A DNA stretch of 64,000 nucleotides from an uncultured Methanobrevibacter sp. (GCF_902764455.1 NZ_CACWVY010000003.1:19548-83547); one strand, 5' to 3'. Numbered from the stretch's first letter, positions 4,272 through 35,760 are shown. Numbers and translations are program-made. Notes: generated from the letters alone by a model not told the origin.

Positions 4272-4276
4272 ATGTG

Positions 4277-10996: not shown

Positions 10997-11012
10997 TTTA
11001 GGTTTACCTAAA
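10997..11012. promoter_or_regulatory. DtxR/IdeR-family metal box upstream of feoB (proximal, just after TATA)
   Basis: Palindrome TTTAGG-TTTA-CCTAAA directly downstream of TTATATAAA (10986-10994). Confidence 0.75.
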
Positions 11013-11119
11013 TTATAGTCATGTATTTTTAACGAACGAATATGGCTAAATTTTCGAGGAATATAATATTTCAAAAAAATATTATTCCAAATTTTTTAAT
11101 TAAAACGGGAGAATGGTTA

Positions 11120-13138
11120 ATGACAGAATTAATTGTAGGATTAGCAGGAAACCCCAATGTGGGTAAAACTACTGTCTTCAATCGATTGACTGGAATGCGC
11201 CAGCATGTAGGTAACTGGCCCGGAAAAACCGTGGAAAAAGCAGAGGGTCACTTTTCCCACGGAAACTATAACTATGACGTTATAGATTTGCCGGGAAATT
11301 ACGCATTGAGCGCACATTCTATGGAAGAAATCGTATCAAGAGATTTCATCGTAGATGACTCCTCAGATGCAATCGTGAATGTAGTAGATGCTGCTAATTT
11401 AGAACGAAATTTATATTTAACAGTACAAATGATGGAATTAGGTGCTAACCTTGTATTAGCCCTTAACATGAACGATTTTGCAAAGAAAAAAGATCATATC
11501 ATAGACATTGATTTGATGAGTGAACTTTTAGGATTTCCAGTAATTGAAATCAATGCTAAAACTGGAGACGGATTTGACGAACTGTTAAACACCGTTGAAA
11601 AACAATCCAAAAATCCAATCAATTCCAGTGAAAAATTATCCTATGGTGATGAACTAAGAGAGCATCTTGGTGAATTACAGGAATTAATTGAAAAAGATAA
11701 AAATCTGTTGGATGTGCCTTCAGTCTGGACTGCAATAAAGTTACTTGAAAGGGATTCAATAGTTATCCAAAAAGTTCAAAGCTCTCCTCAAAGTTCCGCT
11801 ATAATGGCTGAAACAGACCGTGTAGCAGGCCACCTCCAATCAGTATATAATGAAGGTGCAGAGGAAGTTATTGCAAATGCAAGATATGCATTTATCGACG
11901 GTTTGATGGCCGAAGCTGTAAAAAAACCGAGTGTTGAAAAAGAAACCGTAACTGACAGAATAGATAAAATTGTAACAAATAGGCTTCTCGCCCCATTTAT
12001 ATTCTTAGGAGTAATGTTTCTCTTATTCCATTTGACATTTACAATAGCAACACCATTTTGTGATTTTATTGATGAATGGTTTGGATGGTTAGGAGAATAT
12101 CTGGTAGCCTCTGTTGGAAATGAAATGTTAGGTTCATTCCTCCAAAACGGACTTATCGGAGGTGTAGGAGGAGTTCTTGTATTCTTACCGCAAATTATTC
12201 TTATGTTTTTATTCTTAAGCATACTGGAAGACAGTGGTTATCTAGCAAGAGCCGCTTTCACTTTAGATAAAGTCATGCACGCAATTGTAGGTCTTCACGG
12301 AAAAGCTTTCATTCCAATGATTTTAGGATTCGGTTGTGGAGTGCCTGCAGTTATGGCAACAAGAACCATGGAAAATGAATCTGACCGTCTGCTTGCAATG
12401 ATGCTTATTCCATTCATGTCATGTACAGCAAGACTGCCAATTTACTCAATTTTTATCGCAGCATTCTTTACAGCAAACAAAAGTCTAATTTTATTATCAA
12501 TCTATATATTAGGTATAGTTGTGGCACTTATTGTTGCAGGTATCCTTAAAAGAACAATGTTTAAAGGAATGTCCGCACCATTTGTTATGGAACTTCCAAC
12601 ATACAAGATCCCATCTCTAAAAGGTGTTTTATTACACACTTGGGATAAAACTAAAGGTTTCTTAAGAAAAGCAGGTACTATCATTCTTGTTTCTGCAATC
12701 ATAATCTGGATTTTAAGTTACTTGCCATTTGGTGTGGAATACGGATCACAGGAAAGTATACTTGGTATGATAGGTAGTGCAATAGCCCCTATTTTTGCTC
12801 CGCTTGGTTTTTCAACCTGGCAAGCAGGTATTGCAATCCTTACAGGTTTAGTTGCAAAAGAAGTTGTAGTATCAACATTTACCACATTAGGTGGACTTGA
12901 AGAAGATGATGAGGAAGGAACTGTCGCATTAGTTCAAGACTTGTTCACACCACTATCTGCATATTCATTCATGGCATTCTGTTTATTATACGTGCCTTGT
13001 TTTGCAGCTATTGGAGCAATCAAACAAGAAACCAACAGCTGGAAATGGCCATTGACAATGTCAGCCATTACATTAGTGACTGCTTATATTGTAGCATTCC
13101 TAATCTACAATGTTGGTTTACTTGCAGGATTCGGATAA
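11120..13138 (+). CDS. feoB: Ferrous iron transport protein B
   Basis: GNPNVGKT (G1), VGNWPGKT (G2), DLPG (G3), NMND; GFGCGVP and PFMSCTARL; ATG at 11120 after GGGAGA. Confidence 0.97.
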   Translation: MTELIVGLAGNPNVGKTTVFNRLTGMRQHVGNWPGKTVEKAEGHFSHGNYNYDVIDLPGNYALSAHSMEEIVSRDFIVDDSSDAIVNVVDAANLERNLYLTVQMMELGANLVLALNMNDFAKKKDHIIDIDLMSELLGFPVIEINAKTGDGFDELLNTVEKQSKNPINSSEKLSYGDELREHLGELQELIEKDKNLLDVPSVWTAIKLLERDSIVIQKVQSSPQSSAIMAETDRVAGHLQSVYNEGAEEVIANARYAFIDGLMAEAVKKPSVEKETVTDRIDKIVTNRLLAPFIFLGVMFLLFHLTFTIATPFCDFIDEWFGWLGEYLVASVGNEMLGSFLQNGLIGGVGGVLVFLPQIILMFLFLSILEDSGYLARAAFTLDKVMHAIVGLHGKAFIPMILGFGCGVPAVMATRTMENESDRLLAMMLIPFMSCTARLPIYSIFIAAFFTANKSLILLSIYILGIVVALIVAGILKRTMFKGMSAPFVMELPTYKIPSLKGVLLHTWDKTKGFLRKAGTIILVSAIIIWILSYLPFGVEYGSQESILGMIGSAIAPIFAPLGFSTWQAGIAILTGLVAKEVVVSTFTTLGGLEEDDEEGTVALVQDLFTPLSAYSFMAFCLLYVPCFAAIGAIKQETNSWKWPLTMSAITLVTAYIVAFLIYNVGLLAGFG

Positions 13139-13158
13139 ACATTGGTAAGGTGATATAA

Positions 13159-13389
13159 ATGACAAAAACTTTAAAGGATGTAAAACCTGGTGAAACAGTC
13201 ACATTGGTAAAATACCATAATGACGGAGATGTGGATTTAAGAAGACACCTGCTGGGAATGGGTTTTGTTAAAGGAGCAAAAATTACTGTTAAAAAAGTTG
13301 CTACCTTAGGCGATCCCATTGAAATGAACATCAAAGGATATGATGTTTGTCTTCGAAAAGATGAAGCAAAAAATATTGAAGTGGAATAA
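13159..13389 (+). CDS. feoA: Ferrous iron transport protein A
   Basis: RRHLLGMGFVKGAKITVKKVATLGDPIE..LRKDEA FeoA SH3-like pattern. Confidence 0.93.
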   Translation: MTKTLKDVKPGETVTLVKYHNDGDVDLRRHLLGMGFVKGAKITVKKVATLGDPIEMNIKGYDVCLRKDEAKNIEVE

Positions 13390-13429
13390 ACTTCAATATT
13401 TCAATATTTTTTTTATTATGAGGTAAAAT

Positions 13430-13639
13430 ATGAAATGTCGTATTTGTGGTTTTGAATTTGATGAGAAAAAATTGAAAAACCGTGGGTGCGTTGGCTGTGG
13501 AAAACATTCCGGATGCAAACAGGTTCATTGTCCAAATTGCGGATTTGGAAACCATCCGGAACTTGAAGAAGAATTTGAATTTATTAACAAATTGAAAAAT
13601 AAAATAAATAGAAAAAAAGAAAACAAATCATTTTTTTAA
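13430..13639 (+). CDS. Small Cys-rich Feo-associated protein
   Basis: CRIC..CVGC..C..CPNC (7 Cys in about 40 aa); GAGG RBS; inside the feo operon. Confidence 0.75.
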   Translation: MKCRICGFEFDEKKLKNRGCVGCGKHSGCKQVHCPNCGFGNHPELEEEFEFINKLKNKINRKKENKSFF

Positions 13640-13654
13640 AGGGAGATTGTTAAA

Positions 13655-13921
13655 ATGAATCGTGATGAAATTATTAATAAATGTTATGAGCACAAACATG
13701 CGTTAATTTTTGCAGCAGGAATCGCTACTGCAATTGTCGGTAAAAAAATATTAGAATCAAAAACCGTGAAAGATGCTGCAACACAAGGCATGGCATCCGT
13801 AATGTCTGCTAAAAAAGATGCTGAAGAATGTTTCCAAGACATGAAAGAAAATGCAGAAGACATTGTGGTTGATGCAAACGCAGAAACTAAAAAAGAGATT
13901 TATATAGAAGCAAAAGAATAA
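13655..13921 (+). CDS. Small protein of the type that precedes P1B-ATPases (DUF1490/DUF6110-like)
   Basis: N-terminal FAAGIATAIVGKKIL helix then a charged helix; GGGAG RBS; directly before the ATPase. Confidence 0.6.
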   Translation: MNRDEIINKCYEHKHALIFAAGIATAIVGKKILESKTVKDAATQGMASVMSAKKDAEECFQDMKENAEDIVVDANAETKKEIYIEAKE

Positions 13922-13945
13922 GCTTATTTTTTCAGGTATAAAGAA

Positions 13946-16093
13946 ATGAAATACAAAGTAATGTATGATAACAAAACTCGATTAAGAGTTCGTTCAGGCC
14001 AATGGGCTTTCACCAAAGAAGAAGGTTATGGCCTCGCTTCATTACTTTTAAATCAAAGTTTTATCCATGAAGTATACACTTCCCATAGAAACGGAAGTAT
14101 TTTAATATACTACGACGGAGATATTGAAAGCAAAAAGAAGATTTTCAATATCCTTGATGGTATTACATTAGATGATTTGTTTGAAGCAGAGCCGACTCAA
14201 GCTCAAACTTCAAGGGAAATCACCGACGAGTTTTATCTCAAATTATCCAAAATGATTTTTAATAGAGTTCTTTATAGAATATTCCTACCGATGCCTATTA
14301 GAAATGCATTGACAATTTATAATGCAGCAGAATATATCTGGAATGGTTTGGACAGTTTGACCAGCTTTAGAGTTGATGTTGCACTTCTCGACGGTGCGGC
14401 AGTAACCGGAGCACTACTGCAAAAACAGTACAAACCAGCAAGTTCAATGATGTTCTTATTGTCAATCTCCGATGCGCTTGAAGACTACACAATACAAAAA
14501 GCTAAAAGTACACTTAAAGACAGTTTGGCTTTAAATATAGATACTGTATGGGTAGTAGGAGAAGACGGTGAAGAAAAACAATGCCCTGCTGTTGATATAG
14601 ATAAGGGAGATAAAATTAAAGTCCACATGGGCGATGTGATACCGGTTGATGGAAAAGTAATTGAAGGAGAAGCAATGGTTAATGAAGCTTCCATGACTGG
14701 AGAGCCATTAGCAACCCATAAAAGACCTGGAAAAACAGTTCATGCAGGAACTGTTATAGAAGAAGGTAATCTGATAGTTGAAGTTTATTCAATGAACAAG
14801 GAAACCCGTTTAAATAAAATAATCGATTTAATTGAAAATTCAGAAGAGTTGAAGGCAGATACACAAAGCAAAGCTGAAAAACTTGCCGATTCAATTGTTC
14901 CATACAGTTTCCTTGCAACAGCTTTAACCTACTTAATTACCGGAAATTCAACAAAAGCATTATCCGTATTGATGGTTGATTTTTCATGTGCCATTAAGCT
15001 AACAACCCCATTATCCATCATATCTGCAATGCGAGAAGCATCAGACAATAGAATGATGGTAAAAGGAGGTAAATTTTTAGAAAACTATGCAAATGCAGAC
15101 ACCATCATATTCGATAAAACAGGAACACTAACAAAAGCAACTCCAAAGGTTGTTGAAGTAGTTCCTATGTCCAGACGATACAAACGTGATGACATTCTAA
15201 GAATGGCCGCATGTATTGAAGAGCATTTCGCACACAGTATTGCAACTGCCATAGTAAAACAGGCTGAGAAGGAAGGCCTCAAACATGAAGAAGACCACAG
15301 TGAAGTGGAATACATTGTAGCACATGGCATTGTAACCGAATATGACGGAAAACGTGCAGTAATAGGATCAAAACACTTCTTATTTGATGATGAGAAAGTG
15401 AAAGCAACCAAAGCCCAGGAAAAGAAAATGGCTAAAAAAGCAGCAGAACACTCTGTAGTTTATCTGGGCATAGACGGAAAACTTGAAGGCTTAATCTGCA
15501 TTGATGATCCCGTACGTGAAGAAGCAAAATATGTAATAGAAGAACTAAAAGAGTTAGGCATTGAAAATGTCATAATGCTTACAGGAGACAGTGAAAGCGG
15601 TGCAAAAGCTAGTGCTAAAGCATTAGGCATCACAGATTATAAATCACAAGTTCTTCCAGAAGATAAATCAAGAATTGTAGAAGAGTTAAAACAAGACGGA
15701 AAAACCGTCATTATGGTCGGAGACGGAATCAATGATTCCCCGGCACTTGCAGCAGCTGATGTATCTGTTTCAATGAAACATTCATCAGATATTGCACGTG
15801 AAGTAGCAGACATATCATTACTGTCCGACGATTTATATGACCTCGTAACACTCAGGAAACTAAGTGTTGGAATGTTGGATAAAATCAACAAAAATTACCA
15901 CAATATTGTTGCAGTAAATGGCAGCCTTCTTGTTTTAGGTGTTTTAGGCATAATTCCTCCATCAACTTCATCAATGATACATAACCTATCTACCATGTTG
16001 TTTGGAGTAATGAGCACTAAATCAGTTTTAACTGATAAAGATTTTTCAAGAGATATAGAAGTAGAAGCTATTGAAGTAGCTGATATTTCTTAA
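13946..16093 (+). CDS. Heavy-metal P1B-type ATPase with SCA motif (P1B-6 subclass)
   Basis: SMTGEP, DFSCAIKL, DKTGTLT, MLTGD, GDGINDSPAL, HNLST. Confidence 0.9.
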   Translation: MKYKVMYDNKTRLRVRSGQWAFTKEEGYGLASLLLNQSFIHEVYTSHRNGSILIYYDGDIESKKKIFNILDGITLDDLFEAEPTQAQTSREITDEFYLKLSKMIFNRVLYRIFLPMPIRNALTIYNAAEYIWNGLDSLTSFRVDVALLDGAAVTGALLQKQYKPASSMMFLLSISDALEDYTIQKAKSTLKDSLALNIDTVWVVGEDGEEKQCPAVDIDKGDKIKVHMGDVIPVDGKVIEGEAMVNEASMTGEPLATHKRPGKTVHAGTVIEEGNLIVEVYSMNKETRLNKIIDLIENSEELKADTQSKAEKLADSIVPYSFLATALTYLITGNSTKALSVLMVDFSCAIKLTTPLSIISAMREASDNRMMVKGGKFLENYANADTIIFDKTGTLTKATPKVVEVVPMSRRYKRDDILRMAACIEEHFAHSIATAIVKQAEKEGLKHEEDHSEVEYIVAHGIVTEYDGKRAVIGSKHFLFDDEKVKATKAQEKKMAKKAAEHSVVYLGIDGKLEGLICIDDPVREEAKYVIEELKELGIENVIMLTGDSESGAKASAKALGITDYKSQVLPEDKSRIVEELKQDGKTVIMVGDGINDSPALAAADVSVSMKHSSDIAREVADISLLSDDLYDLVTLRKLSVGMLDKINKNYHNIVAVNGSLLVLGVLGIIPPSTSSMIHNLSTMLFGVMSTKSVLTDKDFSRDIEVEAIEVADIS

Positions 16094-16202
16094 TCTTTTC
16101 TTTTTTTTAAATTAAGAGTACATCTGCGAGTATAAGAATATTTAGTAAAAAATATCTCTTATATATGACTATTTAAATCAATTATTTAGGAAGGTACTGT
16201 TC

Positions 16203-16907
16203 ATGAGTACAATTATTGAATTTAAAAATGTTAACAAGATTTATAAGTCCGGAGAGCATATTTTAAAAGCTATGGACAATGTCAATTTTACAATCGATGA
16301 AGGTGAATTTGTTATTATTTTAGGACCTTCAGGCGCAGGTAAATCAACATTACTGAACCTTTTAGGCGGTCTTGATACACTTACATCCGGCGAAATTATC
16401 GTTAATGGAAATCATATAGAAAATTTTTCAGATAATCAGCTTACATCCTACCGGGCAGAAAATGTGGGCTTTATTTTTCAGTTTTATAATCTCATACCAA
16501 ATTTAACCGCTCTTGAAAATGTAGAACTTATGAAGGACATTGTCAAGGTGAATATAAACGGCATGGAAGTTCTAGATTCAGTAGGGCTTAAAGATCATGC
16601 CAATCAATTTCCTGCACAGTTATCCGGTGGAGAACAGCAAAGAGTATCCATTGCAAGAGCAGTAGCTAAACAACCTACAATGCTTTTATGTGATGAGCCA
16701 ACAGGAGCGCTTGACTCTAAAACAGGCGTTTTGATTCTGAATTTGCTTCAGGATATGAGCAACAACAAAGGAACCACCGTCGTTATTGTAACACACAATG
16801 CAATTTTAGCAGAAGCCGCAGACAAAGTAATCAGAATTAAAAACGGTCAGATAGAAAGCATTGTTGTTAATGAAAATCCCAAAAACATTACAGATTTAGA
16901 ATGGTGA
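16203..16907 (+). CDS. ABC transporter ATP-binding protein (LolD/MacB-like)
   Basis: [33 protein letters not shown]. Confidence 0.95.
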
Positions 16908-21623: not shown

Positions 21624-23354
21624 TTAATTATTCTTAATTGTAATTACAGTACTGTTTAATCCCAGTACTCTCGAGTAATCAATATTGTCAGATATTTTAT
21701 TTAAAATGCTGATATTGTCAAATTTCAAATCTTCATTTTCAACAACCGGATTGAATTCAACACCTGTGTCCTTAATAGAAATTAGAATATTTTCATCATT
21801 ATCTCTAACAATTACGTCAATATTTTCTACAGTTTCATTAGTGTTAATTATATTGACAAGCATTTCCTCAATAGCCATACTGACCAAAGTGGCAGATTTG
21901 TTCTCAGACAAATAGTTTTGAACATCGCTAGATAATTCAACAGCTTCTTTAACATCCCCACTAATAGTATGCTCAAATACTGATTGGTCATCATTATGTT
22001 TATTGATAAAGAATCCTGAATACTCACCATCAGTTTTTTTACTGATGTATCTTGAATAAACAAAGATGAACATTATTGTTATGGCTTCCGCTATTGCAAA
22101 TGAAATCCAAATTCCATCACCACCTATTGCTAATGCAAGTATTATTGCAAGAGAAATCGGCAACACAAGCCCCTCAAGTAATGAGATTATTGTTGACAAC
22201 TGATTCTTTTGTATTGCCTGAGAGTAGAAAGTATATAAAAATGTAATTGCAGTACCAACATAAGATATTGCAAATATTCTAAGCGCATTTAAAACAACAG
22301 GAACCTGTGCAGAGTCTTTAACACTATACAACAACAATAATGATTGAGGATAAACAATGAATAAAACTGACAATGCCAAACTTGAAATTAAAACAATCTT
22401 CAATGCTCTGTGGATAACATAATTAACTCCTGAATAATCCTCTTCCTTGAAGTAAACAGATACAATCGGAGACATGGTCTGTGCCGTTCCAATTAAGAAA
22501 ATGTATAATATAAATAAACTGTTATAACAAATTCCAAAAGCTACCAAACCGAATTTCCCAAAATAAAGACCTAATAAAAAGTTTATGATGTACAATTTTA
22601 ATGTCAAATATAATTGTGTTGATGCGGATGAAAATCCTGATGTTACAATCTTTTTAAGATAACTTAATAATGGTTTAACTTTCAATTTGATAAATTGCAG
22701 TGTGCGCTCTGGTTTAAAGAAATAATAGGATATAATGATAGAACCCACAATATACCCTGTTGAAGTTGCAAGTGCAGCACCAGACAGACCAAAATTTAAA
22801 AATTTAATATAAACAAAGTCAAAACAAATATTAACAATATTTGCTAATAGTATTGCCCTGAATGGTAAAGAAGGAATACCATCCGCCCTTATAAAATAAG
22901 ATAAACTCATCATATAACATAAGAAAGGCATACCTATGATTAATGCTTTGAAAAACAGATTTACATCCGGAACTAACTCTGGCTGTGAAGCACATAGCAT
23001 TTGAGAGATAGGTCCTGAAAACAGCAATCCTACAATCATGATTAGAATTCCAATAGTTAAAAGTGAAATAATTGAAACCGAAAAGTAACTGTTGGATCCT
23101 TCTTCATCAAATTCCGCTTTTGCAACAGAACACAGTACACTGCCTCCCAACCCAATCATCCAATAAATTAAATTAACAAATGTAATTACCGGAGCCACAC
23201 TTTGAATTGCTGACAGATTTCCTGCACCGATTAAAAAACTAACAATCAATCCGTCAACAAAAAGACAGATGTTTCCTGCCATTGATGTGAATAAAGTCGG
23301 CAGGAAAAATTCTGAAAATTTACTTCTCAATAAATTATAATTTCTCTCATACAT
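21624..23354 (-). CDS. MATE-family efflux transporter with C-terminal RsbW-like (HATPase_c) domain
   Basis: About 12 TM MATE body (IRADG.P, NICFD, GLSGAALATS, GDGIWISF) plus a tail with AIEEMLVNII..DTGVEFNP; 11 bp from the NRPS stop. Confidence 0.88.
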   Translation of the reverse strand: MYERNYNLLRSKFSEFFLPTLFTSMAGNICLFVDGLIVSFLIGAGNLSAIQSVAPVITFVNLIYWMIGLGGSVLCSVAKAEFDEEGSNSYFSVSIISLLTIGILIMIVGLLFSGPISQMLCASQPELVPDVNLFFKALIIGMPFLCYMMSLSYFIRADGIPSLPFRAILLANIVNICFDFVYIKFLNFGLSGAALATSTGYIVGSIIISYYFFKPERTLQFIKLKVKPLLSYLKKIVTSGFSSASTQLYLTLKLYIINFLLGLYFGKFGLVAFGICYNSLFILYIFLIGTAQTMSPIVSVYFKEEDYSGVNYVIHRALKIVLISSLALSVLFIVYPQSLLLLYSVKDSAQVPVVLNALRIFAISYVGTAITFLYTFYSQAIQKNQLSTIISLLEGLVLPISLAIILALAIGGDGIWISFAIAEAITIMFIFVYSRYISKKTDGEYSGFFINKHNDDQSVFEHTISGDVKEAVELSSDVQNYLSENKSATLVSMAIEEMLVNIINTNETVENIDVIVRDNDENILISIKDTGVEFNPVVENEDLKFDNISILNKISDNIDYSRVLGLNSTVITIKNN

Positions 23355-23365: not shown

Positions 23366-26300
23366 CTAAACACTGAAGAAATCCAAGTCAACCAGATATT
23401 TAATGAAATTATAGATATATTCCTCAGAAACAAATGGCCATTTAATGCCTAAACGATACATAGACTGTATAGTATAAACATTATCAACAGGAAGCCAAAT
23501 CTTTTTAACCTTTCCGGAACCTATCGAAGTAATAAGACCGGAGACTCCTTCCTGTTTTGTTTTATCCGCAAGAGCTTCATCCAAAGCTTTTTGATATTCA
23601 TCATCCTCAACAGGCTGAATATCCAATCCTAAAGGTCTGATAATTTCAATAATATCACCGAAGCTTACACTATGATAATCATATGGATGGAATACTCTAC
23701 AGTCCTTTGGAGTTTTGGACAGATTCAAAATAGCTTTTGCAGTTGTATCAATTGGTGAGAATTCAACGTTATTCATCAACATTGAATAAGGCATTTTACC
23801 AATGGTTACAAATGCTTTTAAACGATTGATGAAACCATTTGACTCAAAGTTAATCTGGAACTCACTGTCTGAACTTCTGGCCATCAGGTTACCCACCCTC
23901 ATGATTTTAACATCTAAATCATCATCAACAGCAGCTTCTAAAACAGCACGTTCAGCTAAAAATTTACTGCTGAGATATTGGTTATCTACTTTTTGGCCAA
24001 TAAACAAATCATCTTCTTTAAATTTAACATCAACAGGAGGATAGTTATTAACACTTTCACCAGCAATACTGTATGTGGATACTTGGACATATTTAGCATT
24101 TTTCATTTTCGCAAATTTCAATCCGTTGATAACTCCTCCGAAGTTAATGTCTTCTATATCTGTTCCTGATGAGAAATGTTTTACATTAGCCGCACAGTTT
24201 ATAATTGTATCTATTCTTTCAGGCATAAGCTTTTCAAAGTCTTCAAAGCTTGTAATGTCCCCCTCAATAACATGTAACCTCTCATCGAATAATTCTGCAT
24301 ATTCATCGGAGAAGTAATAGAATAGTAATGATTTTAACCTTTCTGCACCACTAAGAACTTTATTTGCCCTTATGAAACAGTAAATCTCATCAGTTTCATT
24401 TTCTAAAATTTCATGCAGCACATGTATTCCTAAAAATCCAGTAGCACCTGTAAGCAAAATATTGCCCAAATCATCTTCAAATTCACCATTGACTAATGAT
24501 TCAATGTTGTTTTTCTTAAGCAAATTATTGATTTTAGTGTAATCATAAGACATTTCTGATTTTTTCTCAACTGTCTCATCAGATAAGATGAATTCAGACA
24601 ATGCTCTTGGAGTAGGATTTGAGAAAACATCCCCATAATTTAGATTATAATTCCTGTTTAATGCTTCCATAGTGATTTTAGTTACTAAAAGTGATGTTCC
24701 ACCTATCTCAAAGAAGCTGTCAGTGACACTTACTTCATCAAGTCCTAAAATTTCTGCAAATAACTCAGCAAAGAATGCTTCAATTTCATTTTCAGGAGCA
24801 ACATACTCAGTTATTAAGACAGGCTCAGGCAAGTTTCTCAAGTCTGTTTTACCATTAACCGTCTGAGGCATTTCATCAAGCTCCATATAGACAGTAGGAA
24901 CCATATAATATACCAGTTTTTCAGCAAGTGAAGCTTTTAAATCATCAATATCAATGGAATATTCGTTTTCTTCACGATTTTCATCTTTAATATCATCATG
25001 AACTGTGAAATAAGCACATAAGTGGTCATTGCCTTTAATTTTCTTTACAACAACTGCAACAGATTTAATTCCAGGATATTTTGAAAGTCCCACTTCAATT
25101 TCACCTATTTCGATTCTTAATCCTCTGAGTTTAATCTGATTATCCATTCTTCCGAATACATAATAATCCCCATTTTCAGTGACTTTAACAAAGTCTCCGG
25201 AATGATAAAACCGTATTCCATTAATCACTTCATAACTTTCAGCATTTTTCTCAGGACGGTTCAAGTACTCTCTTGAAACTCCTTTTCCACCAATATACAA
25301 TTCTCCAATAACATTTGGAGGTAATGGATTGGAGTCGAAGTCCATAACCATTTCATGAACATTAAATAATTCTTTTCCAATGTGGATGTCTGAGCTTTCA
25401 AGCAACTGACCGTTACAGTAAACTGTTGTTTCAGTTGGACCATACATATTAAAGATTTTACCATTGGAATTTTTGGAAAGCAAATCATATAATCTTGGTG
25501 AGAACGGTTCTCCCGCATGAATATAAACTTTAAATCCATACATAGTTTCCTGCATTGCTTCAATATCCAAATATTGGAGTAAACGTGAAGGAGTAGCAAC
25601 ATAAACATTTGCTCCAGTCCTGTTGATTAAATCCATCATCTCAATTGGATCTTTGTATTCAGTATCATTTGCAAATACCATAGGAACTCCATTTAAAAGA
25701 GATCCCATTAACTCTTGCTGGAATACATCGAAAGCAACAGTTGTTGTGGACAATACTTTATAATCCTCTTTTTCAAGATTGTGCACCAATTCATATGTAC
25801 ATACATTTCTCGGATCAGGATATGCAAAGTTTGCAATATTTCCATGTTCCAGAATAACTCCTTTTGGAAGTCCTGTTGAACCGGAAGTGTAAATAAGATA
25901 TGCCATATTGTTTGGATGCACATCAGGATCAGGATTGGAAATATCCGCCTCTTTAAGCAATTCATTAATATCCAATAAGTTTTCACTGTAATCGCTTAAA
26001 TCAATGCCTTTTCTGTCAATTACATCATCAACAATGATGAATTTAGATTCACTGTCAGTTAGAACATGCTCAATTCTTTCAGAAGGATATTCTGAATCAA
26101 CAGGAATAAAGGCAGCACCTGATTTTAAAATACCAAATACTGATGCCATTACATTACTATCTCTATTTAAGATAAACATTATCCTGTCTTCAGGACCAAC
26201 ACCCTTTTTAATAAGACTGTGAGCAATTCTATTAGCTTTTTCATTTAATTGAGAGTAAGTAAATTCACCGTCGGTAGCATATAATATTACTCTATCAGGA

Positions 26301-29300
26301 TGCAGTTCAACTTGTTTTTCAAATATCTTATTCAACCTCTCTTCAGGAATTTCATCATATTCCAAATCATCTACACCCCAATCATCATTTTCAATGATGG
26401 AAATATCTTTCATTAATGTATTTTTATCGAATGTTTGGAATTTATTTAAAACAATTCTAATACAATCGAGGAATGTATTAATTAAGGTTTCAGAGTATAA
26501 CTGGTCATTGTATTCACAGAAAATTCTGTATTGGCCATCAACTTCAACCACATTAATATTTATTTTGAATTTCAAGCCTTCGTAATCCAAAGATTCTCTT
26601 TCAACCTTCATCCCCCCGATTTCAATGTCTTCAATGATTTTTCCATGATATGCATATAATATTTCAGGAGTGATATCGAATTCATTTGAAATTTCTGTTA
26701 AAGGATATGAAGAATAAGTTAATACATTTAACCATTCTCCATTAATATATTCCATGTATTCCCTAAGACTTGAATCAGAATTTAATTTTAATGCTAAAGG
26801 TAATGTTTTAACCATCATGGCCAAGGTTTTTTGCTGGTTCGGATTGAATCTACCATTAGTAATAGTTGCAATCAATACATTACGGTTATAAACAAACTTG
26901 TTTAAAACAAAGGAGGTTGCTGCCAGGAATAAATTATTCTGACTCATGTTTGACTCAGAACAGAATTCATCAATGGACTGTTTATCAAGGAAAATATCTT
27001 TCATTGCAGCCTTACCCTGTGATTCATCACCGTTAATGTCCTGTGTAATTACTGTTGCATCATCAAACTCTTTAATTTTATTTGAAAAGAACAATTTTGC
27101 TTCCTCATATAAACTGGACTGTTCTGTTTTTATCTCATTTAATGAATATTCAAATCCGTCAAGTTCTTCTAAATCATAGTCTTTTCCATCATATATTTTG
27201 GATATTTCATCGAACAAAATATTGAGAGATGTTCCATCAACAATAATATGGTGGAAATCAGCAAGCAGCATTGAATTTCCAACTATCTTGAATCTGAATA
27301 ATGGTCCCTCATCAAGTTTAAATGGGGTGACAAATTCATCCAAATTAATTTCATCGACTGTTTCAATTAAATCATCGACTTTGAGATTATCTCTTCTTTG
27401 CTGATAAACTTCACCTTTCTCCATTACTATCCTTGTTTTTAAGTATGGGTGATTTTCAATAGCTTTGACTATTGAAGATTTGAGTTTATCCACGTCAATA
27501 CCTTCACTGAATTCCATTTTCTTTGGAAGGTTGTAAGCAGTATTTTCAGGATCTTTAATACAGTCAAAGTAAACACCAAGCTGATTTGAAGTTAACGGAT
27601 ACAATTCCTGAACTTCACCAGCAACGTCATCTTCAATTTTAATTTCAGATGCAATTTTTTCGATGGTTTTGTATCTCAATATTTCTGTAACATTCAACTG
27701 TGCATTGAAATTGTTATAAATTGCAGAAGTTAATTTAATTACAGATAAAGAAGTCAGACCTATGTTAAATAAATCAGTGTTTACACCAAATTCATCAATT
27801 CCTAAAATTTCAGAGACAATATCAAATAATTCTTTTTCTATATCTGTTCTAGGTTTTATGAATTCATCAACATTAATTTCAGGGTCAGGTAAATTCTTAA
27901 AGTCAGTTTTACCATTAGGTGTTTTAGGAAACGCTTCAAGCTGTGTGAAATATGACGGAACCATGTATTCAGGTAAAGAATCTATTAAATGCTGTTTTAA
28001 ATCATCAATGTCAATATCACATGAAGCTGTGAAATAAGCACAGAGATGTTCAATAGAATTAATCTTTTTAACAACAACTTTTGAAAGAGTGACATTTTCA
28101 TAATTCGCAATAGCTCCTTCGATTTCAGACAGCTCAATTCTCAAACCTCTAAGTTTAATTTGAGTATCATTACGTCCTGAAACATACAATTCTCCATTAT
28201 CATCCCGTTTACCTAAATCTCCAGTATTATAATATGGAATATCATTTAAGGTTAAAAAGACCTTTTGAGTCTGTTCATCATTGCCCAAATAGCCTCTTGC
28301 AATTCCAGCTCCACCAACATAAATTTCTCCAGTCACATGAGCAGGCAATTGATTTCCATCGATATCCATTATCTTATCAACTACATTAAGCATTTTCCAA
28401 CCTGCAGTGACCTTATTGGAATCCATCAGCTTATAATGTGATGCAATTGTAACTTCAGTTGGTCCGTATGAATTGTAAATATCCGCATCAGTGTATTTTG
28501 TAAGTCTGTCATATAACACTGGAGGGAATCCTTCCCCACCTACAATAATCACATTACATTTTCCAACAACATCCTGGATTTCTTCAATTTGAAGATATTC
28601 AAGTAATCTGGTAGGTGTGGAACCGAATCCTTCAGCATCAGTTGCATTGAATAATTCAACTAATTCCAACGGATCCATTGCCTGTTCATCATTAGCAAAT
28701 ACAACAGGCAGACCATTTAAAATTGTACCGAATATTTCCCTTAGGAATACGATAAATGAAACTGTGGAAATGGATATGAACTTACTGCATTTGTGATTCA
28801 GCTCATAAATCGGAACATTTTCCTCAACATTGGCAACATAGTTTGTAATTCCTCTGTGAGTAATCATTACCCCTTTTGGTTTTCCTGTTGAACCTGAAGT
28901 ATAAATCAGGAAACATAAATTATCAGGAGTTAATTCAATTTGAGGATTGGAATCATCATCTTCTTTGAGGAGTTCATCAACATCTATCCGATTTTCACCT
29001 TCATAGTCAATTTCAGAACTGGTTATGACAAATTTGGAGTCACTGTCGTCAAGAATTTGTTCAATCCTGTTTTTTGGATAATTCGGATCAATCGGAATGA
29101 ATGCTGCTCCCGCTTTAACAATACCTAAAACTGCAGCAATCAAATCACTGTTCCTCCTCATCATGAACATTACTCTGTCTTCAATGTTAACTCCTCTTTT
29201 GATTAAAGCATTGGCGATTTTATTGGCTTTTTTATTTAATTCATCATATGTGAGTTCGCAGTCTTCAGCATAAAGGATTGTCTTTTGAGGATTTTCAGCT

Positions 29301-31186
29301 GCGATATTTTCAAATACCTTATTTACAATTCCTTCATTTGCAAGCTCAATTTCAAATCCTTCATCCAATTCAAGTTCTCTTTTAATAGAAATGTTTTTAA
29401 GCAATGAATCTGTGAAAGCAAATCTGTCGATTAAAACATCCATTGCATCAAGGAATGCTTCCATTAATTCTTTTGAATAAAATGATTCATCATAGCGGAT
29501 ATTGATTTTTCCGCTTTCAAAATTAAAGATTAATTTATAATCTCTGGATTTGGAATAATCATCAACAAAGAATAAAATTTCGCTTTCAAAGTTCAGTTTT
29601 TTATTATTCAATAATGGATAATTACTGTAATTTTTGAAATAAGTTTTGAAATCTTCAAAATATTCTTTAACAGTCAAATCTGTGTTGAAATGATATCCTG
29701 CAGCAGTACGATTAAAAGCAATCAGAATGTCTTTTGAAAATGAAAATTTAGTTAAATTATACAAGAAAGTTGCCAGCAGCACTTTATCTTTTGATAAATG
29801 ATATTTATTAGCCAGGTCCTTTAATTTTTCAATATCAATTGCTTTGGAAATTTTATTGAAAATTACTTCATCATCATTAACATCAGGAGAAATTGCAGTT
29901 GGATTATCAAAGGAATTAATTAAATTATTATAGTAATTTTCTCCTTTGAAAAAGTCAATTACATTGACATGATAATCTTTACATTTTATAGAAGAATCTT
30001 CACTGACCTGTTTTGCCAAATCATTAAGGCCACTTGCAATTTCGCGTATTTCCATTTCTACAAAACAAGATTTATCATATTCTATGAATATAGACTGCAA
30101 ACCATCTTTATCAGAATAATTTTTATTTATTCTAAAATGCAATGGGAATTTGATATCTTTTTGAAGTGTCAGGAATTTTGAGTCGAAATTGGTTGAGTTT
30201 GAAACGATTGAAATCATTGAAATACAATCAGGATCAATACCCTCATTTCTTAAATCGGTTGTATATTCACTGAATTGTAATTTTGCATGTCCCAAACCTT
30301 CTTTTAAAACTGATTTGGAATAAGCAAGCAATTCATCAAAGGTCAATTCTTCATCATATTTTAACCTTAAAGGAATAGTATTTACAAACATTCCCAATGC
30401 TTCTTCCTGACCAAAGTATCTGCCATGAACTGAAGTGTTGAAAACCATATCAGCAAACTGTGCATTATCTTTTTTGGATTTTGCAATGTATAAGAAATTC
30501 AGTGCCAGTGCAGTAACAAATGGGGAATAATCAAATTCTGGAATCTTTTCAAGAAGCACCTCAAAGAACCCAAATTGAGATTCATCGAATGAATACCAGT
30601 CCTGAGAATAATCTTTTAATGAATCCAACCAATATTTTTTATCGTCATCAGCTTCAGCAGATTCAAGATAATCCTTTTCAGCATTTACATAAGTCTCATA
30701 TGAATAATCAATTGGAATGTACTGCTCATTATTCTTAAGGCAATTCATACATTTTTCAATTTCCTGCGGAACAACTGAAAACAAGGAAGTTCCATCAAGC
30801 AAAATATGCTGAACAACACCAATGAGAACAGTTGAGGAATCGGTTTTTAAAACTGCCCATTTATATAAAGGAGCATCGAAAATATCATCAAAAGGATCTT
30901 CCAGATAATCCTTAATAAATTCACCGATGTCTTCAGTCACTTCAAAACTTTCAACATTTGTTTCAACAACATCTTCATAATATTGCTTGAAATCGCCGCT
31001 TTCATCAAATTTTATCTGTAAATTAAGATAATTCCGCGAAATAATTTCAATTGAAGATTTTACATACTCAAAATCATTTAAATCATAATCCTTTCTGAAT
31101 TTTAGATAGAATGAATCATTTTGAGGATTGTTCATTTCAGAAAATAATAACATTTTCTGACTAGAAGATAAATCAAATAATACCAT
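23366..31186 (-). CDS. Two-module non-ribosomal peptide synthetase with terminal thioester reductase (C-halfC-A-T-C-A-T-R)
   Basis: C1 QHILLDG; A1 YTSGSTGKPKG, YGPTE, YNTGDLG, PKTPNGKTD; T1 FNIGLTSL; C2 HHIIVDG; A2 YTSGSTGLPKG, YGPTE, YHSGD; T2 FFEIGGTSL; R ILLTGATGFLG, YLSSK. Confidence 0.97.
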   Translation of the reverse strand: MVLFDLSSSQKMLLFSEMNNPQNDSFYLKFRKDYDLNDFEYVKSSIEIISRNYLNLQIKFDESGDFKQYYEDVVETNVESFEVTEDIGEFIKDYLEDPFDDIFDAPLYKWAVLKTDSSTVLIGVVQHILLDGTSLFSVVPQEIEKCMNCLKNNEQYIPIDYSYETYVNAEKDYLESAEADDDKKYWLDSLKDYSQDWYSFDESQFGFFEVLLEKIPEFDYSPFVTALALNFLYIAKSKKDNAQFADMVFNTSVHGRYFGQEEALGMFVNTIPLRLKYDEELTFDELLAYSKSVLKEGLGHAKLQFSEYTTDLRNEGIDPDCISMISIVSNSTNFDSKFLTLQKDIKFPLHFRINKNYSDKDGLQSIFIEYDKSCFVEMEIREIASGLNDLAKQVSEDSSIKCKDYHVNVIDFFKGENYYNNLINSFDNPTAISPDVNDDEVIFNKISKAIDIEKLKDLANKYHLSKDKVLLATFLYNLTKFSFSKDILIAFNRTAAGYHFNTDLTVKEYFEDFKTYFKNYSNYPLLNNKKLNFESEILFFVDDYSKSRDYKLIFNFESGKINIRYDESFYSKELMEAFLDAMDVLIDRFAFTDSLLKNISIKRELELDEGFEIELANEGIVNKVFENIAAENPQKTILYAEDCELTYDELNKKANKIANALIKRGVNIEDRVMFMMRRNSDLIAAVLGIVKAGAAFIPIDPNYPKNRIEQILDDSDSKFVITSSEIDYEGENRIDVDELLKEDDDSNPQIELTPDNLCFLIYTSGSTGKPKGVMITHRGITNYVANVEENVPIYELNHKCSKFISISTVSFIVFLREIFGTILNGLPVVFANDEQAMDPLELVELFNATDAEGFGSTPTRLLEYLQIEEIQDVVGKCNVIIVGGEGFPPVLYDRLTKYTDADIYNSYGPTEVTIASHYKLMDSNKVTAGWKMLNVVDKIMDIDGNQLPAHVTGEIYVGGAGIARGYLGNDEQTQKVFLTLNDIPYYNTGDLGKRDDNGELYVSGRNDTQIKLRGLRIELSEIEGAIANYENVTLSKVVVKKINSIEHLCAYFTASCDIDIDDLKQHLIDSLPEYMVPSYFTQLEAFPKTPNGKTDFKNLPDPEINVDEFIKPRTDIEKELFDIVSEILGIDEFGVNTDLFNIGLTSLSVIKLTSAIYNNFNAQLNVTEILRYKTIEKIASEIKIEDDVAGEVQELYPLTSNQLGVYFDCIKDPENTAYNLPKKMEFSEGIDVDKLKSSIVKAIENHPYLKTRIVMEKGEVYQQRRDNLKVDDLIETVDEINLDEFVTPFKLDEGPLFRFKIVGNSMLLADFHHIIVDGTSLNILFDEISKIYDGKDYDLEELDGFEYSLNEIKTEQSSLYEEAKLFFSNKIKEFDDATVITQDINGDESQGKAAMKDIFLDKQSIDEFCSESNMSQNNLFLAATSFVLNKFVYNRNVLIATITNGRFNPNQQKTLAMMVKTLPLALKLNSDSSLREYMEYINGEWLNVLTYSSYPLTEISNEFDITPEILYAYHGKIIEDIEIGGMKVERESLDYEGLKFKININVVEVDGQYRIFCEYNDQLYSETLINTFLDCIRIVLNKFQTFDKNTLMKDISIIENDDWGVDDLEYDEIPEERLNKIFEKQVELHPDRVILYATDGEFTYSQLNEKANRIAHSLIKKGVGPEDRIMFILNRDSNVMASVFGILKSGAAFIPVDSEYPSERIEHVLTDSESKFIIVDDVIDRKGIDLSDYSENLLDINELLKEADISNPDPDVHPNNMAYLIYTSGSTGLPKGVILEHGNIANFAYPDPRNVCTYELVHNLEKEDYKVLSTTTVAFDVFQQELMGSLLNGVPMVFANDTEYKDPIEMMDLINRTGANVYVATPSRLLQYLDIEAMQETMYGFKVYIHAGEPFSPRLYDLLSKNSNGKIFNMYGPTETTVYCNGQLLESSDIHIGKELFNVHEMVMDFDSNPLPPNVIGELYIGGKGVSREYLNRPEKNAESYEVINGIRFYHSGDFVKVTENGDYYVFGRMDNQIKLRGLRIEIGEIEVGLSKYPGIKSVAVVVKKIKGNDHLCAYFTVHDDIKDENREENEYSIDIDDLKASLAEKLVYYMVPTVYMELDEMPQTVNGKTDLRNLPEPVLITEYVAPENEIEAFFAELFAEILGLDEVSVTDSFFEIGGTSLLVTKITMEALNRNYNLNYGDVFSNPTPRALSEFILSDETVEKKSEMSYDYTKINNLLKKNNIESLVNGEFEDDLGNILLTGATGFLGIHVLHEILENETDEIYCFIRANKVLSGAERLKSLLFYYFSDEYAELFDERLHVIEGDITSFEDFEKLMPERIDTIINCAANVKHFSSGTDIEDINFGGVINGLKFAKMKNAKYVQVSTYSIAGESVNNYPPVDVKFKEDDLFIGQKVDNQYLSSKFLAERAVLEAAVDDDLDVKIMRVGNLMARSSDSEFQINFESNGFINRLKAFVTIGKMPYSMLMNNVEFSPIDTTAKAILNLSKTPKDCRVFHPYDYHSVSFGDIIEIIRPLGLDIQPVEDDEYQKALDEALADKTKQEGVSGLITSIGSGKVKKIWLPVDNVYTIQSMYRLGIKWPFVSEEYIYNFIKYLVDLDFFSV

Positions 31187-31275
31187 AAGTTCACCAAAAT
31201 ATTTATATTAGTAAAATATATGTAACCCAAAATATATAAAAATGTATTATTTAATATTAATTGTAAGGGATTATT

Positions 31276-31575
31276 ATGAATATTGAAAAAAATTATAATG
31301 GAAAAGAATTAACATTGTCTATTGAAGGACGTATAGACACAATAACTTCAAAAGATTTAGATAATACAATCAATGAGGAAATGGGAAATTTTGATTCATT
31401 AATATTGGATTTTGCGGATTTAGAATATATCTCAAGTGCAGGATTAAGAGTAGTAATTGCAACTCAAAAAAAATTAAAGCCAAACAATATTCCTCTTGTC
31501 ATTAAAAATACCAATGAAACTGTTAAAGGAATATTTAAAATGTCAGGTTTTGATAAAATCCTTAACATAGAATAA
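31276..31575 (+). CDS. STAS-domain anti-anti-sigma-like protein
   Basis: EGRIDT, LILDFADLEYISSAGLR (phospho-Ser motif), IFKMSGFDKI. Confidence 0.93.
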   Translation: MNIEKNYNGKELTLSIEGRIDTITSKDLDNTINEEMGNFDSLILDFADLEYISSAGLRVVIATQKKLKPNNIPLVIKNTNETVKGIFKMSGFDKILNIE

Positions 31576-31662
31576 ACTATTCTGACTCGTAGAAGCCATG
31601 AATTTATAGAATTTCCATAAACACTATTAATGGAGTAAAAAAATTAATTAATGCATTAATAT

Positions 31663-31705
31663 GACAATTCATTTTAGACCTAAAGAAGTCAAAGATTTTG
31701 CCAAA
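31663..31705. mobile_element. Degenerate IS200/IS605-end-like palindromic repeat, copy 2
   Basis: GACAATTCATTTTAGACCTAAAGAAGTCAAAGATTTTGCCAAA; about 35/45 identical to 1568-1612 by manual alignment. Confidence 0.5.
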
Positions 31706-31710
31706 TAGAG

Positions 31711-32091
31711 ATGAAATCAATGAAATTAAATCGAGATATCAACGAATTATATAATTTGAATGATTATATAATTGGAGTAATTCAAAAAGAAGATCTCCAA
31801 GTAAACCTAATAATTGAAGAAGTCTTTGCAAATATTGTCGAATATTCCAATAGCGAATTTATAATTGTTAATGCTGAATTTAATGATTCAATATTAACAG
31901 TGAAATTTATCGACAACGGAATTCCTTTCAATCCTCTATTAAAAGAAGATCCTGAACTTCCAAATACTGTTGAAGAAGCCCAAATTGGAGGACTGGGAAT
32001 TTTTTTAACAAAAGAACTGGCGGACAATATTGATTATCAGTATATAAACGGTGAAAATCATTTAAAAATTATCAAAAAAGTGGATTCATAA
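31711..32091 (+). CDS. RsbW/SpoIIAB-like Ser kinase (HATPase_c)
   Basis: IIEEVFANIVEYS (N box), DNGIPFNP (G1), GGLGIFL (G2). Confidence 0.9.
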   Translation: MKSMKLNRDINELYNLNDYIIGVIQKEDLQVNLIIEEVFANIVEYSNSEFIIVNAEFNDSILTVKFIDNGIPFNPLLKEDPELPNTVEEAQIGGLGIFLTKELADNIDYQYINGENHLKIIKKVDS

Positions 32092-32115
32092 ACACCGTAT
32101 AGCTTAACAGTTTGC

Positions 32116-33893: not shown

Positions 33894-35096
33894 ATGAATG
33901 AAGAACTTACATACTTTAAGGGAACTCACAGAGTAATTGCTCCCAAAAAAACCATTGAAAATACAGAAGATAAATTAAAAATAGCAGGAATTACCCGTAT
34001 TGCAGATATTACAGATTTGGACAGGATTGGACTTCCCATATATACTGCTATCAGACCTACTGCCGAAGATGGTGCAGTCAGTATTTATGGAGGGAAAGGA
34101 ATTTCAAAAGACCATGCTAAAGCATCAGCAATGATGGAAGGTTTTGAGAGATATTCCGCCGAAAGGCAGGAATCCGACGAAACTGTGAATGCAACCATAG
34201 AAGAAATTTCTGAAAAAGGAGAATATATTGATCCCAAATCCCTGAATCTTCCCAAAGAATTTGAAAAGGAAGACCTCTCTAATTTGAATTTGGAATGGAG
34301 CATTTCACATGATATAATTTCAGATAAAGATTATTTTATTCCAACCAATGCAATTTATCATCCATACATTAACGATGCATCCACCCGGAGCCTATTCAAA
34401 TCAAATACCAATGGTCTGGCATCCGGAAACATTTTGGAAGAAGCCATTTTACATGGAATATTTGAAGTTATTGAAAGGGACGCATGGAGCATTTTTGAGT
34501 TAACCCATAAAAACTATGCTCAAATTGATTTAAACAGTATTGAAAGCAATGTTGTTAATGATACTCTTGATAAATTTGAAAGTAAAGGAATTAAAATCAA
34601 ATTAATGGATTTTACTGCTGACATTAATGTTCCAACAATAGCTGCTTCTGCCGATGACACCGTGACTAAAGATGCAGGACTTCTCACATTGGGAATGGGA
34701 ACACATCTTGATCCTGAAGTTGCAATTTTAAGGGCGCTTACTGAAGTTGCACAAAGCAGAGCAACACAAATCAACGGAGCCAGAGAAGATACCGTTAGAG
34801 CTGATTTTGCACGTGAAGCCGGTTATGAACGAATGAAGCGCATCAATAAATATTATTTCAGGCAGGAAGAGGATAAAATAAATCTATCAGATATCGAAAA
34901 CAAATCAACAACATCAATTACTGAAGACATTGAAATTGTTAAAGATGAACTGATGGCAAATGACATTGAAAAGATTCTCTACACTGATTTGACAAGACCT
35001 GAATTGGACATCAGTGTTGTTAGAGTCATAATTCCTGAAATGGAAATTTATGCTATTGACCAGTCAAGAGCAGGATACAGATTTTTAAAAATATGA
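33894..35096 (+). CDS. ycaO: YcaO, TfuA-associated thioamide-forming type
   Basis: AMMEGFER, SNTNGLASG, EVIERDAW, RALTEVAQSR; no C-terminal PxP; adjacent to tfuA. Confidence 0.93.
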   Translation: MNEELTYFKGTHRVIAPKKTIENTEDKLKIAGITRIADITDLDRIGLPIYTAIRPTAEDGAVSIYGGKGISKDHAKASAMMEGFERYSAERQESDETVNATIEEISEKGEYIDPKSLNLPKEFEKEDLSNLNLEWSISHDIISDKDYFIPTNAIYHPYINDASTRSLFKSNTNGLASGNILEEAILHGIFEVIERDAWSIFELTHKNYAQIDLNSIESNVVNDTLDKFESKGIKIKLMDFTADINVPTIAASADDTVTKDAGLLTLGMGTHLDPEVAILRALTEVAQSRATQINGAREDTVRADFAREAGYERMKRINKYYFRQEEDKINLSDIENKSTTSITEDIEIVKDELMANDIEKILYTDLTRPELDISVVRVIIPEMEIYAIDQSRAGYRFLKI

Positions 35097-35100
35097 TAAA

Positions 35101-35760
35101 ATGATAAAGATTATTGTTTATACAGGATTATCACTTCCTTTCAGCGAAGCAAAAGAAATTTTAGATTCACACGAGGACATTGAAGTAATTTACAAAAGAC
35201 CTATTAAAAGAGGAGAATTAAGTTTAGCTTTAAAAGAAAATCCAGATATCATTGCAATAATCGACGGAGTTTTTCACCAAAACTCTGCTGTAGGACATAA
35301 GGAAATTTTAAATGTCTTAAAAAGAGGAATTAAAGTTTATGGTGCATCAAGTATGGGAGCACTTAGAGCATCAGAGCTTGACAGTTTAGGTATGGTTGGA
35401 ATAGGCTATGTTTATGAACAATATGCAAGCGGAAAAGTTGATTCCGATGATGATGTTGCTGTGATGCTTGATTGCGAAACATTGGAAGCATTATCAGAAC
35501 CACTAATTAACATGAATTATGTTTTTGAAAATGCAGCAGATAAAAACATCATCACCACAGAAGAAAAAGCAGAACTGCGTGAAATTGCCAAAAAGACATA
35601 TTATCCTCACAGAAACTATTCTCAAACTTTAGCACAATCCAGTTTAAGTCCCGATAAAAAAGACAAACTCATTGATTTTATTCGCACATCACCGGACATT
35701 AAAAAAGAAGATGCAAAAGAGCTGCTTCACTTCATACAAGATGAACTTATCAAATCTTAA
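35101..35760 (+). CDS. tfuA: TfuA-like protein
   Basis: IIDGVFH..AVGHKEI, GASSMGALRASEL, DDDVAV, LSEPLIN. Confidence 0.93.
   Translation: MIKIIVYTGLSLPFSEAKEILDSHEDIEVIYKRPIKRGELSLALKENPDIIAIIDGVFHQNSAVGHKEILNVLKRGIKVYGASSMGALRASELDSLGMVGIGYVYEQYASGKVDSDDDVAVMLDCETLEALSEPLINMNYVFENAADKNIITTEEKAELREIAKKTYYPHRNYSQTLAQSSLSPDKKDKLIDFIRTSPDIKKEDAKELLHFIQDELIKS

Follow-up and report, generated by a model that had tools for sequence, protein, structure and literature searches.

Introduction

The closest described relatives of the genes reported here are the RsbU/RsbV/RsbW-sigmaB and SpoIIE/SpoIIAA/SpoIIAB-sigmaF partner switches of Bacillus and a set of genes around the nonribosomal peptide synthetases (NRPSs) of Methanobrevibacter ruminantium M1, a methanogen from the rumen. 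We analysed a STAS/RsbW gene pair in a 64,000-nucleotide stretch of DNA from an uncultured Methanobrevibacter sp. (GCF_902764455.1 NZ_CACWVY010000003.1:19548-83547, referred to below, at its full length, as the window), where the pair lies divergent from an NRPS gene that is followed by a gene for a MATE exporter. An earlier interpretation made from the DNA without database searches (the sequence-only reading) had taken the pair for a bacterial-type switch, with no phosphatase gene in the window, in an organism without sigma factors.

The puzzle is not new. Leahy et al. (2010) described an anti-sigma antagonist, serine phosphatases, an RsbW-type kinase, a phosphopantetheinyl transferase (PPTase) and MatE around the NRPS genes of M1, proposed that they serve environment sensing, NRPS regulation and export, and linked the PPTase to the priming of NRPS carrier domains (PMC2812497). 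M1 transcribes one NRPS gene, both MatE genes and the PPTase gene of its switch block, and their transcripts go up by 1.06-1.64 (as tabulated, presumably log2) under lauric acid, which inhibits this methanogen (PMC5816558). Later papers still call the products and regulation of methanogen NRPSs unknown (PMC5467289, PMC8024701). The gene association has thus been in print since 2010, which limits surprise; the locus described here is a trimmed-down version of a widespread cassette already published, and its main interest is a concrete candidate output other than a sigma factor. No mention of an RsbW-like pump tail, of a GH3-RsbW fusion or of family-wide statistics was found in the literature searched.

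Switches that do not depend on a sigma factor also have precedents in bacteria, among them SypE/SypA of Vibrio fischeri, BtrU/V/W of Bordetella type III secretion and HenR/All4160 of Anabaena (PMC8256260, PMC13555669). As would be the case in the methanogen, STAS phosphorylation in these systems governs something besides a known sigma factor; the methanogen system differs in having an archaeal host. In HenR/All4160 the STAS domain is fused to a biosynthetic enzyme, a glycosyltransferase, and acts on it directly, whereas in the methanogen STAS is free and RsbW-like domains are fused to the MATE pump or to GH3 enzymes. A further likeness is with the SLC26/SulP anion transporters, which also bear a partner-switch-type domain on a cytoplasmic transporter tail (PMC8256260). 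Those transporters, members of another superfamily, carry the STAS half, while the MATE pump carries the RsbW-like half.

We propose, with about even confidence, that the window pair is the retained core of a phospho-switch operon conserved in the Methanobacteriaceae, and that the state of its STAS protein acts on the pump through the RsbW-like tail. Most likely the switch controls the making or export of a peptide and not a sigma factor. If true, a pump or an enzyme would take the place of a sigma factor as the target of partner switching, in archaea as well as in gut bacteria. With its defined parts, and an exporter that bears a candidate docking domain, the phospho-switch opens the regulation of archaeal secondary metabolism to test, and for rumen biology it points to a signal path deciding when abundant methanogens release NRPS compounds.

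Results and Discussion

An intact STAS/RsbW pair in a genome without detectable sigma factors

The STAS family PF01740 spans residues 6-98 of the 99-residue STAS open reading frame (ORF; E 5.5e-15), and the domain therefore covers the whole small protein. Its best matches among sequences in the PDB are SpoIIAA, RsfB, TM1442 and RsbV. In phmmer/HMMER alignments to SpoIIAA (1auz) and TM1442, Ser54 (codon 31435-31437) of the motif Y51-I-S-S-A-G56 falls on the position of the SpoIIAA phospho-acceptor Ser58, with DSSGL in 1auz opposite SSAGL in the window protein, so that in each an acceptor serine is followed by x-G-L. Residues Y51, S53, S54, G56, L57 and R58 are unchanged across 12 archaeal and bacterial orthologues. 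On these alignments Ser54 is the predicted phospho-acceptor, and the sequence-only reading, which had reported an intact YISSAG motif here, was right in both coordinates and content.

The second ORF matches HATPase_c_2 (PF13581, E 1.9e-13) and encodes a full-length RsbW/SpoIIAB-type GHKL serine kinase. Residues E36, E37 and N41 of the N box, D68 and G70 of the G1 box, and G93, G94 and G96 of the G2 box are invariant in 30 orthologues of 38-75% identity, which bears out the earlier description of intact N, G1 and G2 boxes. A phmmer search of the lone kinase against the PDB gave only a marginal match, and the assignment draws on a profile search and a fold search. The AlphaFold2 model (predicted local distance difference test, pLDDT, 88) retrieved LvrC (9qih) first in a Foldseek search of the PDB, at a template modelling (TM) score of 0.75; SpoIIAB matched at TM 0.67-0.74 with E about 1e-6, RsbW and UsfX were also among the best folds, and LvrC and the anti-sigma kinases outranked the catalytic domains of histidine kinases. 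Truncation or a frameshift, suspected from the 135-nt gap and a small upstream ORF, was ruled out: about 630 homologues were found, nearly all of 125-126 residues and nearly all from Methanobrevibacter, and hundreds of them align from residue 1.

In the genome assembly searched (2.75 Mb, 98% complete), Sigma70_r2 had no match at E 0.01, while 10 of 10 bacterial control genomes were positive. The kinase therefore does not function as an anti-sigma factor: although it has the fold and the motifs of that family, the anti-sigma role cannot apply in a host without a sigma factor. Together with the Pfam matches and the invariant motifs, this upholds the view of the pair as a bacterial-type module in a sigma-less archaeon.

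The likeness to Bacillus extends to the acceptor serine in the same STAS motif, to a GHKL serine kinase with the three boxes and the same fold, and to the archaeal SpoIIE-family PP2C phosphatases, whose N-terminal part is likewise a polytopic membrane region. The methanogen kinase differs in being shorter (126 residues versus 141-150 for the RsbW and SpoIIAB chains compared) and in having no sigma factor to bind; no phosphatase is encoded at the locus, and the switch genes are linked with NRPS and MATE genes, or with GH3 and exporter genes, rather than with a sigma operon.

Phosphatases and other switch parts elsewhere in the genome

The window itself contains no match to SpoIIE, PP2C_2 or Sigma70_r2, and there is no SpoIIE gene elsewhere on its contig. 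PP2C_2 was without a match in the whole genome, the bacterial control genomes being positive. Five genes for SpoIIE-family phosphatases were found on other contigs, two each on C18 and C20 and one on C48; the four on C18 and C20 are intact. The absence of a phosphatase noted in the sequence-only reading thus holds for the window but not for the genome or, as described below, for the relatives. The genome also retains a PPTase gene (contig C10) and, beyond the window pair, encodes three STAS domains and one RsbW domain that looks active; the only free RsbW kinase is the window copy. Haloferax and Methanosarcina genomes, included as controls, had matches to STAS and HATPase_c_2 and none to SpoIIE. 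In a phylum-level search for SpoIIE, the positives among the matches listed all came from genomes of the same family as the window.

Positions 4136-6020 and 7193-8494 of locus L015, on contig C48, hold the SpoIIE gene and, nearby, a gene for a 433-residue protein with a C-terminal partial STAS domain; mcrA lies just past them.

A conserved phospho-switch unit that is reduced in the window lineage

RsbW homologues turned up in 62 of the 151 genomes that were sampled from the family, representing 20 of 27 genera. Gene order was compared in 20 loci with 10-kb flanks and in 49 named loci of Methanobrevibacter and Methanosphaera; archaeal neighbourhoods were scored by tblastn with a fixed query set or, at two loci, by Pfam. 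In these two genera the usual unit is STAS-RsbW-SpoIIE, the last a membrane PP2C, usually followed by an Sfp-type PPTase. SpoIIE directly follows RsbW in 47 of the 49 named loci, STAS precedes RsbW in 40 (overlapping it by 4 nt in 34 of the 40), and a PPTase gene is present in 36. The SpoIIE proteins are about 630 residues long, and their PP2C domain is preceded, as in Bacillus SpoIIE, by 6-10 predicted membrane segments. An NRPS gene adjoins the unit at 25 of the 49 named loci (23 of the 35 with enough flank) and at 8 of the 20 loci in the 10-kb set. The full layout in relatives comprises MATE with its tail, NRPS, STAS, RsbW, SpoIIE and PPTase, the MATE gene coming after the NRPS gene. An orthologous layout like that of the window occurs in L050, L051, L052, L057 and many of the named loci, and one-direction arrays of five genes (NRPS-MATE-STAS-RsbW-SpoIIE) occur in some genera, at L063 and L067.

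Two genomes of the family, G113 and G149, encode single proteins of 789 and 736 residues in which a membrane SpoIIE continues at its C-terminus into the kinase (L053, 7574-9943; L060, 9849-12059). This phosphatase-kinase fusion adjoins STAS and PPTase genes, and many of the closest bacterial homologues are fusions of the same kind.

One comparison is with a congener (G092, locus L050) whose NRPS and STAS proteins are 85% and 78% identical to those of the window. Its order, MATE-NRPS-STAS-RsbW-SpoIIE-1.6 kb-M24-M50-YcaO-TfuA, presents the same neighbours as the window with SpoIIE kept. At the window locus SpoIIE and PPTase are absent, 24 nt separate RsbW from the M24 peptidase gene, and a 135-nt spacer takes the place of the 4-nt overlap, so that the phosphatase is not encoded with its partners and the STAS and kinase genes are no longer tightly coupled. 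Five independent assemblies whose kinases are 98% identical share this layout; the reduced locus is therefore not an assembly error. The missing phosphatase is a local loss and not a trait of the switch system.

M1 offers a second comparison. Its genes mru0066-0071 and mru0512-0516 are orthologous to those of the window, with RsbW 56% and STAS 63% identical when the M1 block (L056) is compared; both strains have a two-module, reductase-ended NRPS with an adjacent MatE, and neither has sigma factors. M1 differs in keeping serine phosphatases beside the NRPS as well as a separate kinase-phosphatase-PPTase-STAS block (L056), whereas the window has no SpoIIE or PPTase at the locus and has the 135-nt spacer. 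An RsbW-like MatE tail is absent from the 2010 description.

The two genes that remain in the window lineage are under purifying selection. Against relatives of the same layout, and with small counts, the ratio of nonsynonymous to synonymous change (pN/pS) was 0.18-0.25 for STAS and 0.12-0.15 for the kinase, compared with 0.10 for the M24 peptidase gene. The spacer between them has 79-82% identical positions in the same-layout assemblies, versus 97-98% protein identity for the adjacent kinase. With a low pN/pS in both ORFs and a spacer that is down to about 80% identity, both genes are still constrained. Faster evolution of the kinase after the loss of the phosphatase was considered and ruled out: RsbW is 54-71% identical over all species pairs, and the window copy, at 54-65%, is just slightly under the other pairs.

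The pump carries an RsbW-like tail and co-occurs with the switch

Over its final ~125 residues the MATE protein is similar to the free kinase and keeps the N box (AIEEMLVNII) and G1 (DTGVEFNP). Alignments show that the GGxG of the G2 box is missing and the lid is shortened in all five paralogues of the genome and in 16 orthologues. The window tail matches PF13581 weakly, at E 6.9e-4, below the cut-off. Its AlphaFold2 model (pLDDT 74) has the secondary-structure order of the kinase model, and the 17 best-ranked PDB matches in a Foldseek search are all SpoIIAB, UsfX or RsbW. The pump thus carries an RsbW-like domain, one that is probably unable to phosphorylate. It is the sole RsbW-like domain inside the NRPS cluster.

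Four more MATE genes with RsbW-like tails lie on contigs C33, C52, C42 and C18, and two of them directly adjoin NRPS genes. Several further NRPS genes or fragments are spread across contigs C42, C31, C75, C55, C52, C40 and C33.

Co-occurrence was tabulated over the 151 family genomes as both features, first only, second only and neither. The counts were 47/15/7/82 for RsbW and the NRPS condensation domain (Fisher P 2e-18), 60/2/9/80 for RsbW and SpoIIE (P 1e-29) and 43/3/11/94 for the MATE tail and NRPS (P 1e-23), tests that ignore phylogeny and genome size and so speak of association, not cause. RsbW, SpoIIE, NRPS and the MATE tail are all present together in 38 of the 151 genomes. That the switch is linked with the NRPS and with the HATPase-tailed MATE, as suggested earlier from the window, thus finds backing in the synteny of dozens of relatives and in strong co-occurrence at the level of genomes.

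In one genome (G037:C1:113125-113549) the RsbW-like tail of an NRPS-adjacent MATE protein is apparently split from its body, with frames of 487 and 109 residues. The same genome has a kinase-SpoIIE-PPTase-STAS block whose layout matches mru0513-0516 of M. ruminantium M1.

The same switch logic in other gene sets

A second module lies on contig C18 of the genome (L014, G000:C18:20000-39999, 5893-15904). It comprises a tandem pair of SpoIIE genes, a gene for a PAS-HisKA_2 histidine kinase, a tailed MATE gene whose end is overlapped by a STAS gene, and a gene for a 711-residue GH3 amido-synthetase with a complete C-terminal RsbW domain. This GH3-RsbW fusion recurs in at least 45 Methanobrevibacter protein clusters, annotated just as "GH3 auxin-responsive promoter family protein". 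A small congener without an NRPS (G004; L153, G004:C7:112000-131000, 5975-16476) carries, on one strand, SpoIIE-STAS-GH3-ATP-grasp ligase-ABC exporter-ABC exporter-GH3-RsbW, the ATP-grasp ligase being RimK-like. This array looks like an NRPS-independent pathway to an amide or peptide governed by a switch of this type.

The nearest kinases outside the archaea, 33-46% identical, belong to Clostridia of the rumen and gut and to a few Bacteroidia; they were recovered with an alignment of kinases, a query with the single kinase having found none. Several of these loci, in gut Clostridia, read STAS-MATE+HATPase_c_2-SpoIIE-RsbW or MATE-GH3-SpoIIE-RsbW. At the 29 closest bacterial loci, a sigma-70 domain was found in 2 of 101 small ORFs lying within 4 kb of the kinase. 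Taken together, the clostridial and archaeal layouts therefore tie the switch family to sets of ligase and exporter genes, with or without host sigma factors.

One further locus, from uncultured Clostridia (L128, 1717-10315), contains a small Nif11-like ORF, a gene for a radical SAM/SPASM enzyme and one for an extracytoplasmic function (ECF)-like sigma-70 factor upstream of MATE-GH3-SpoIIE(HAMP)-RsbW. It is possibly a cluster of the type for ribosomally synthesized and post-translationally modified peptides that includes a sigma gene.

A proposed mechanism and its alternatives

In the mechanism that we propose, an operon of STAS, RsbW-type kinase, membrane SpoIIE-type PP2C and usually PPTase would travel with genes for the synthesis and export of small molecules. 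RsbW would phosphorylate STAS at Ser54. Polytopic-membrane SpoIIE phosphatases, acting in trans in this lineage, would strip the phosphate upon what may be a membrane or envelope signal. The unphosphorylated STAS protein could then dock on the G2-less RsbW-like tail of the MATE pump or, in the sister module, on the GH3-fused RsbW domain. The outcome would be post-translational, a change of either sign in peptide export and perhaps in synthesis too.

Several observations weigh against this mechanism. The local operon is eroded, with translational coupling lost and SpoIIE and PPTase gone from the locus, and the closest orthologue of the lost phosphatase, on contig C48, is split into ORFs of 138 and 483 residues in different frames. 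No MATE tail is detectable in 23 of the 62 RsbW-positive genomes; the tail is therefore not a universal partner, and other partners must exist. The statistical association of the genes carries the limit given with the Fisher tests. Finally, the ECF-like sigma gene of L128 stands just upstream of the MATE gene, and in bacteria some such kinases may act on a sigma factor.

A broader form of the proposal, which we regard as possible and hold tentatively, is a partner switch with transport and not transcription as its output: STAS would dock on the catalytically dead RsbW-like domain of the MATE tail or on the active one fused to GH3, metabolite release would be gated without a transcription factor, and horizontal transfer would have made the cassette common to gut Clostridia and methanogens.

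We consider it unlikely that the output is transcriptional, with RsbW or free STAS holding TFB, TBP or a specific regulator and phosphorylation setting the expression of the NRPS and MATE genes. Such an arrangement would be nearest to the canonical mechanism and is implied by the phrase "regulating NRPS expression" of Leahy et al. (PMC2812497); the switch and the NRPS share a presumed divergent promoter region, the NRPS-related genes of M1 respond to lauric acid at the transcript level, and a sigma gene does occur in the cluster of one bacterial relative (L128). However, no conserved transcription-factor gene was found in the archaeal layouts by tblastn with the fixed queries or, at two loci, by Pfam, and a sigma gene is rarely near the closest bacterial homologues. 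The repeated fusion of the RsbW-like domain to effectors (MATE, GH3) points instead to direct control of proteins. With a conserved regulator gene missing from the cluster, a transcription factor is a less favoured output on the evidence than the MATE tail or the pathway.

Direct control of synthesis, in which the kinase or STAS would act on the NRPS or the PPTase, for example by phosphorylating or docking on a carrier or reductase domain, appears improbable to us. The frequent inclusion of the PPTase gene in the switch operon and the active kinase domain fused to the GH3 amido-synthetase of the second module are in keeping with it, but Pfam found no STAS- or RsbW-like domain in the window NRPS, and the only RsbW-like domain that the cluster offers belongs to the pump.

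Least likely of all is that the pair is a decaying passenger, which came with an NRPS cassette from gut Clostridia by horizontal transfer and became a roleless remnant once the phosphatase and PPTase genes had been deleted: the clostridial affinity of the closest non-archaeal homologues, the bacterial origin inferred by Leahy et al. (PMC2812497), the loss of SpoIIE, PPTase and gene overlap, and the case of G125, a genome without NRPS and MATE tail in which the SpoIIE beside the kinase is fragmented and no STAS gene is adjacent, so that the module does decay where the pathway is absent, are outweighed by ORFs that are intact in the window and in five independent assemblies, by pN/pS values of 0.12-0.25, near that of the M24 peptidase gene, beside a diverged spacer, by the retention of all catalytic and acceptor residues, and by the other SpoIIE genes and the PPTase still present in the genome.

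Layout of the locus and neighbouring genes

Coordinates of the switch locus and its neighbours are collected in Table 1.

Table 1. Features of the window locus; positions are counted from the first nucleotide of the window.
Feature	Position	Strand	Length and basis
STAS-domain protein, anti-sigma-antagonist type	31276-31575	+	99 residues; PF01740 match
RsbW/SpoIIAB-type GHKL serine kinase, full length	31711-32091	+	126 residues; PF13581 (HATPase_c_2) match
AT-rich divergent intergenic region, NRPS start to STAS start	31187-31275	.	89 bp; sequence and ORF ends
Non-coding spacer between STAS and kinase genes	31576-31710	.	135 nt
Junction of kinase gene and convergent M24 peptidase gene	32092-32115	.	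24 nt; relatives have SpoIIE phosphatase and PPTase genes here
Two-module NRPS (C-A-T-C-A-T-reductase)	23366-31186	-	2606 residues; Pfam Condensation, AMP-binding, PP-binding, NAD_binding_4
MATE exporter with C-terminal RsbW-like tail (probable pseudokinase, about 21627-22046)	21624-23354	-	576 residues; MatE E 2.6e-24

The MATE gene comes directly after the NRPS gene on the same strand. The NRPS ORF starts at 31186 on the minus strand and the STAS ORF at 31276, so the divergent spacing of 89 bp given in the sequence-only reading is exact. The region between them presumably holds the promoters of both genes; it contains TATA-like runs, which are not significant for a genome of 30% GC. The spacer between STAS and the kinase was also considered as a repeat, a mobile element or a gene remnant, and these were rejected, blastn against the genome and the relatives having returned only chance AT-rich matches.

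Directly downstream of the locus, at 33894-35760, lies a pair of genes for YcaO (400 residues) and TfuA (219 residues), presumably of the kind linked to thioglycine formation in methyl-coenzyme M reductase. Relatives have the pair in the same place, and it marks the point of the chromosome at which the NRPS/switch block is inserted.

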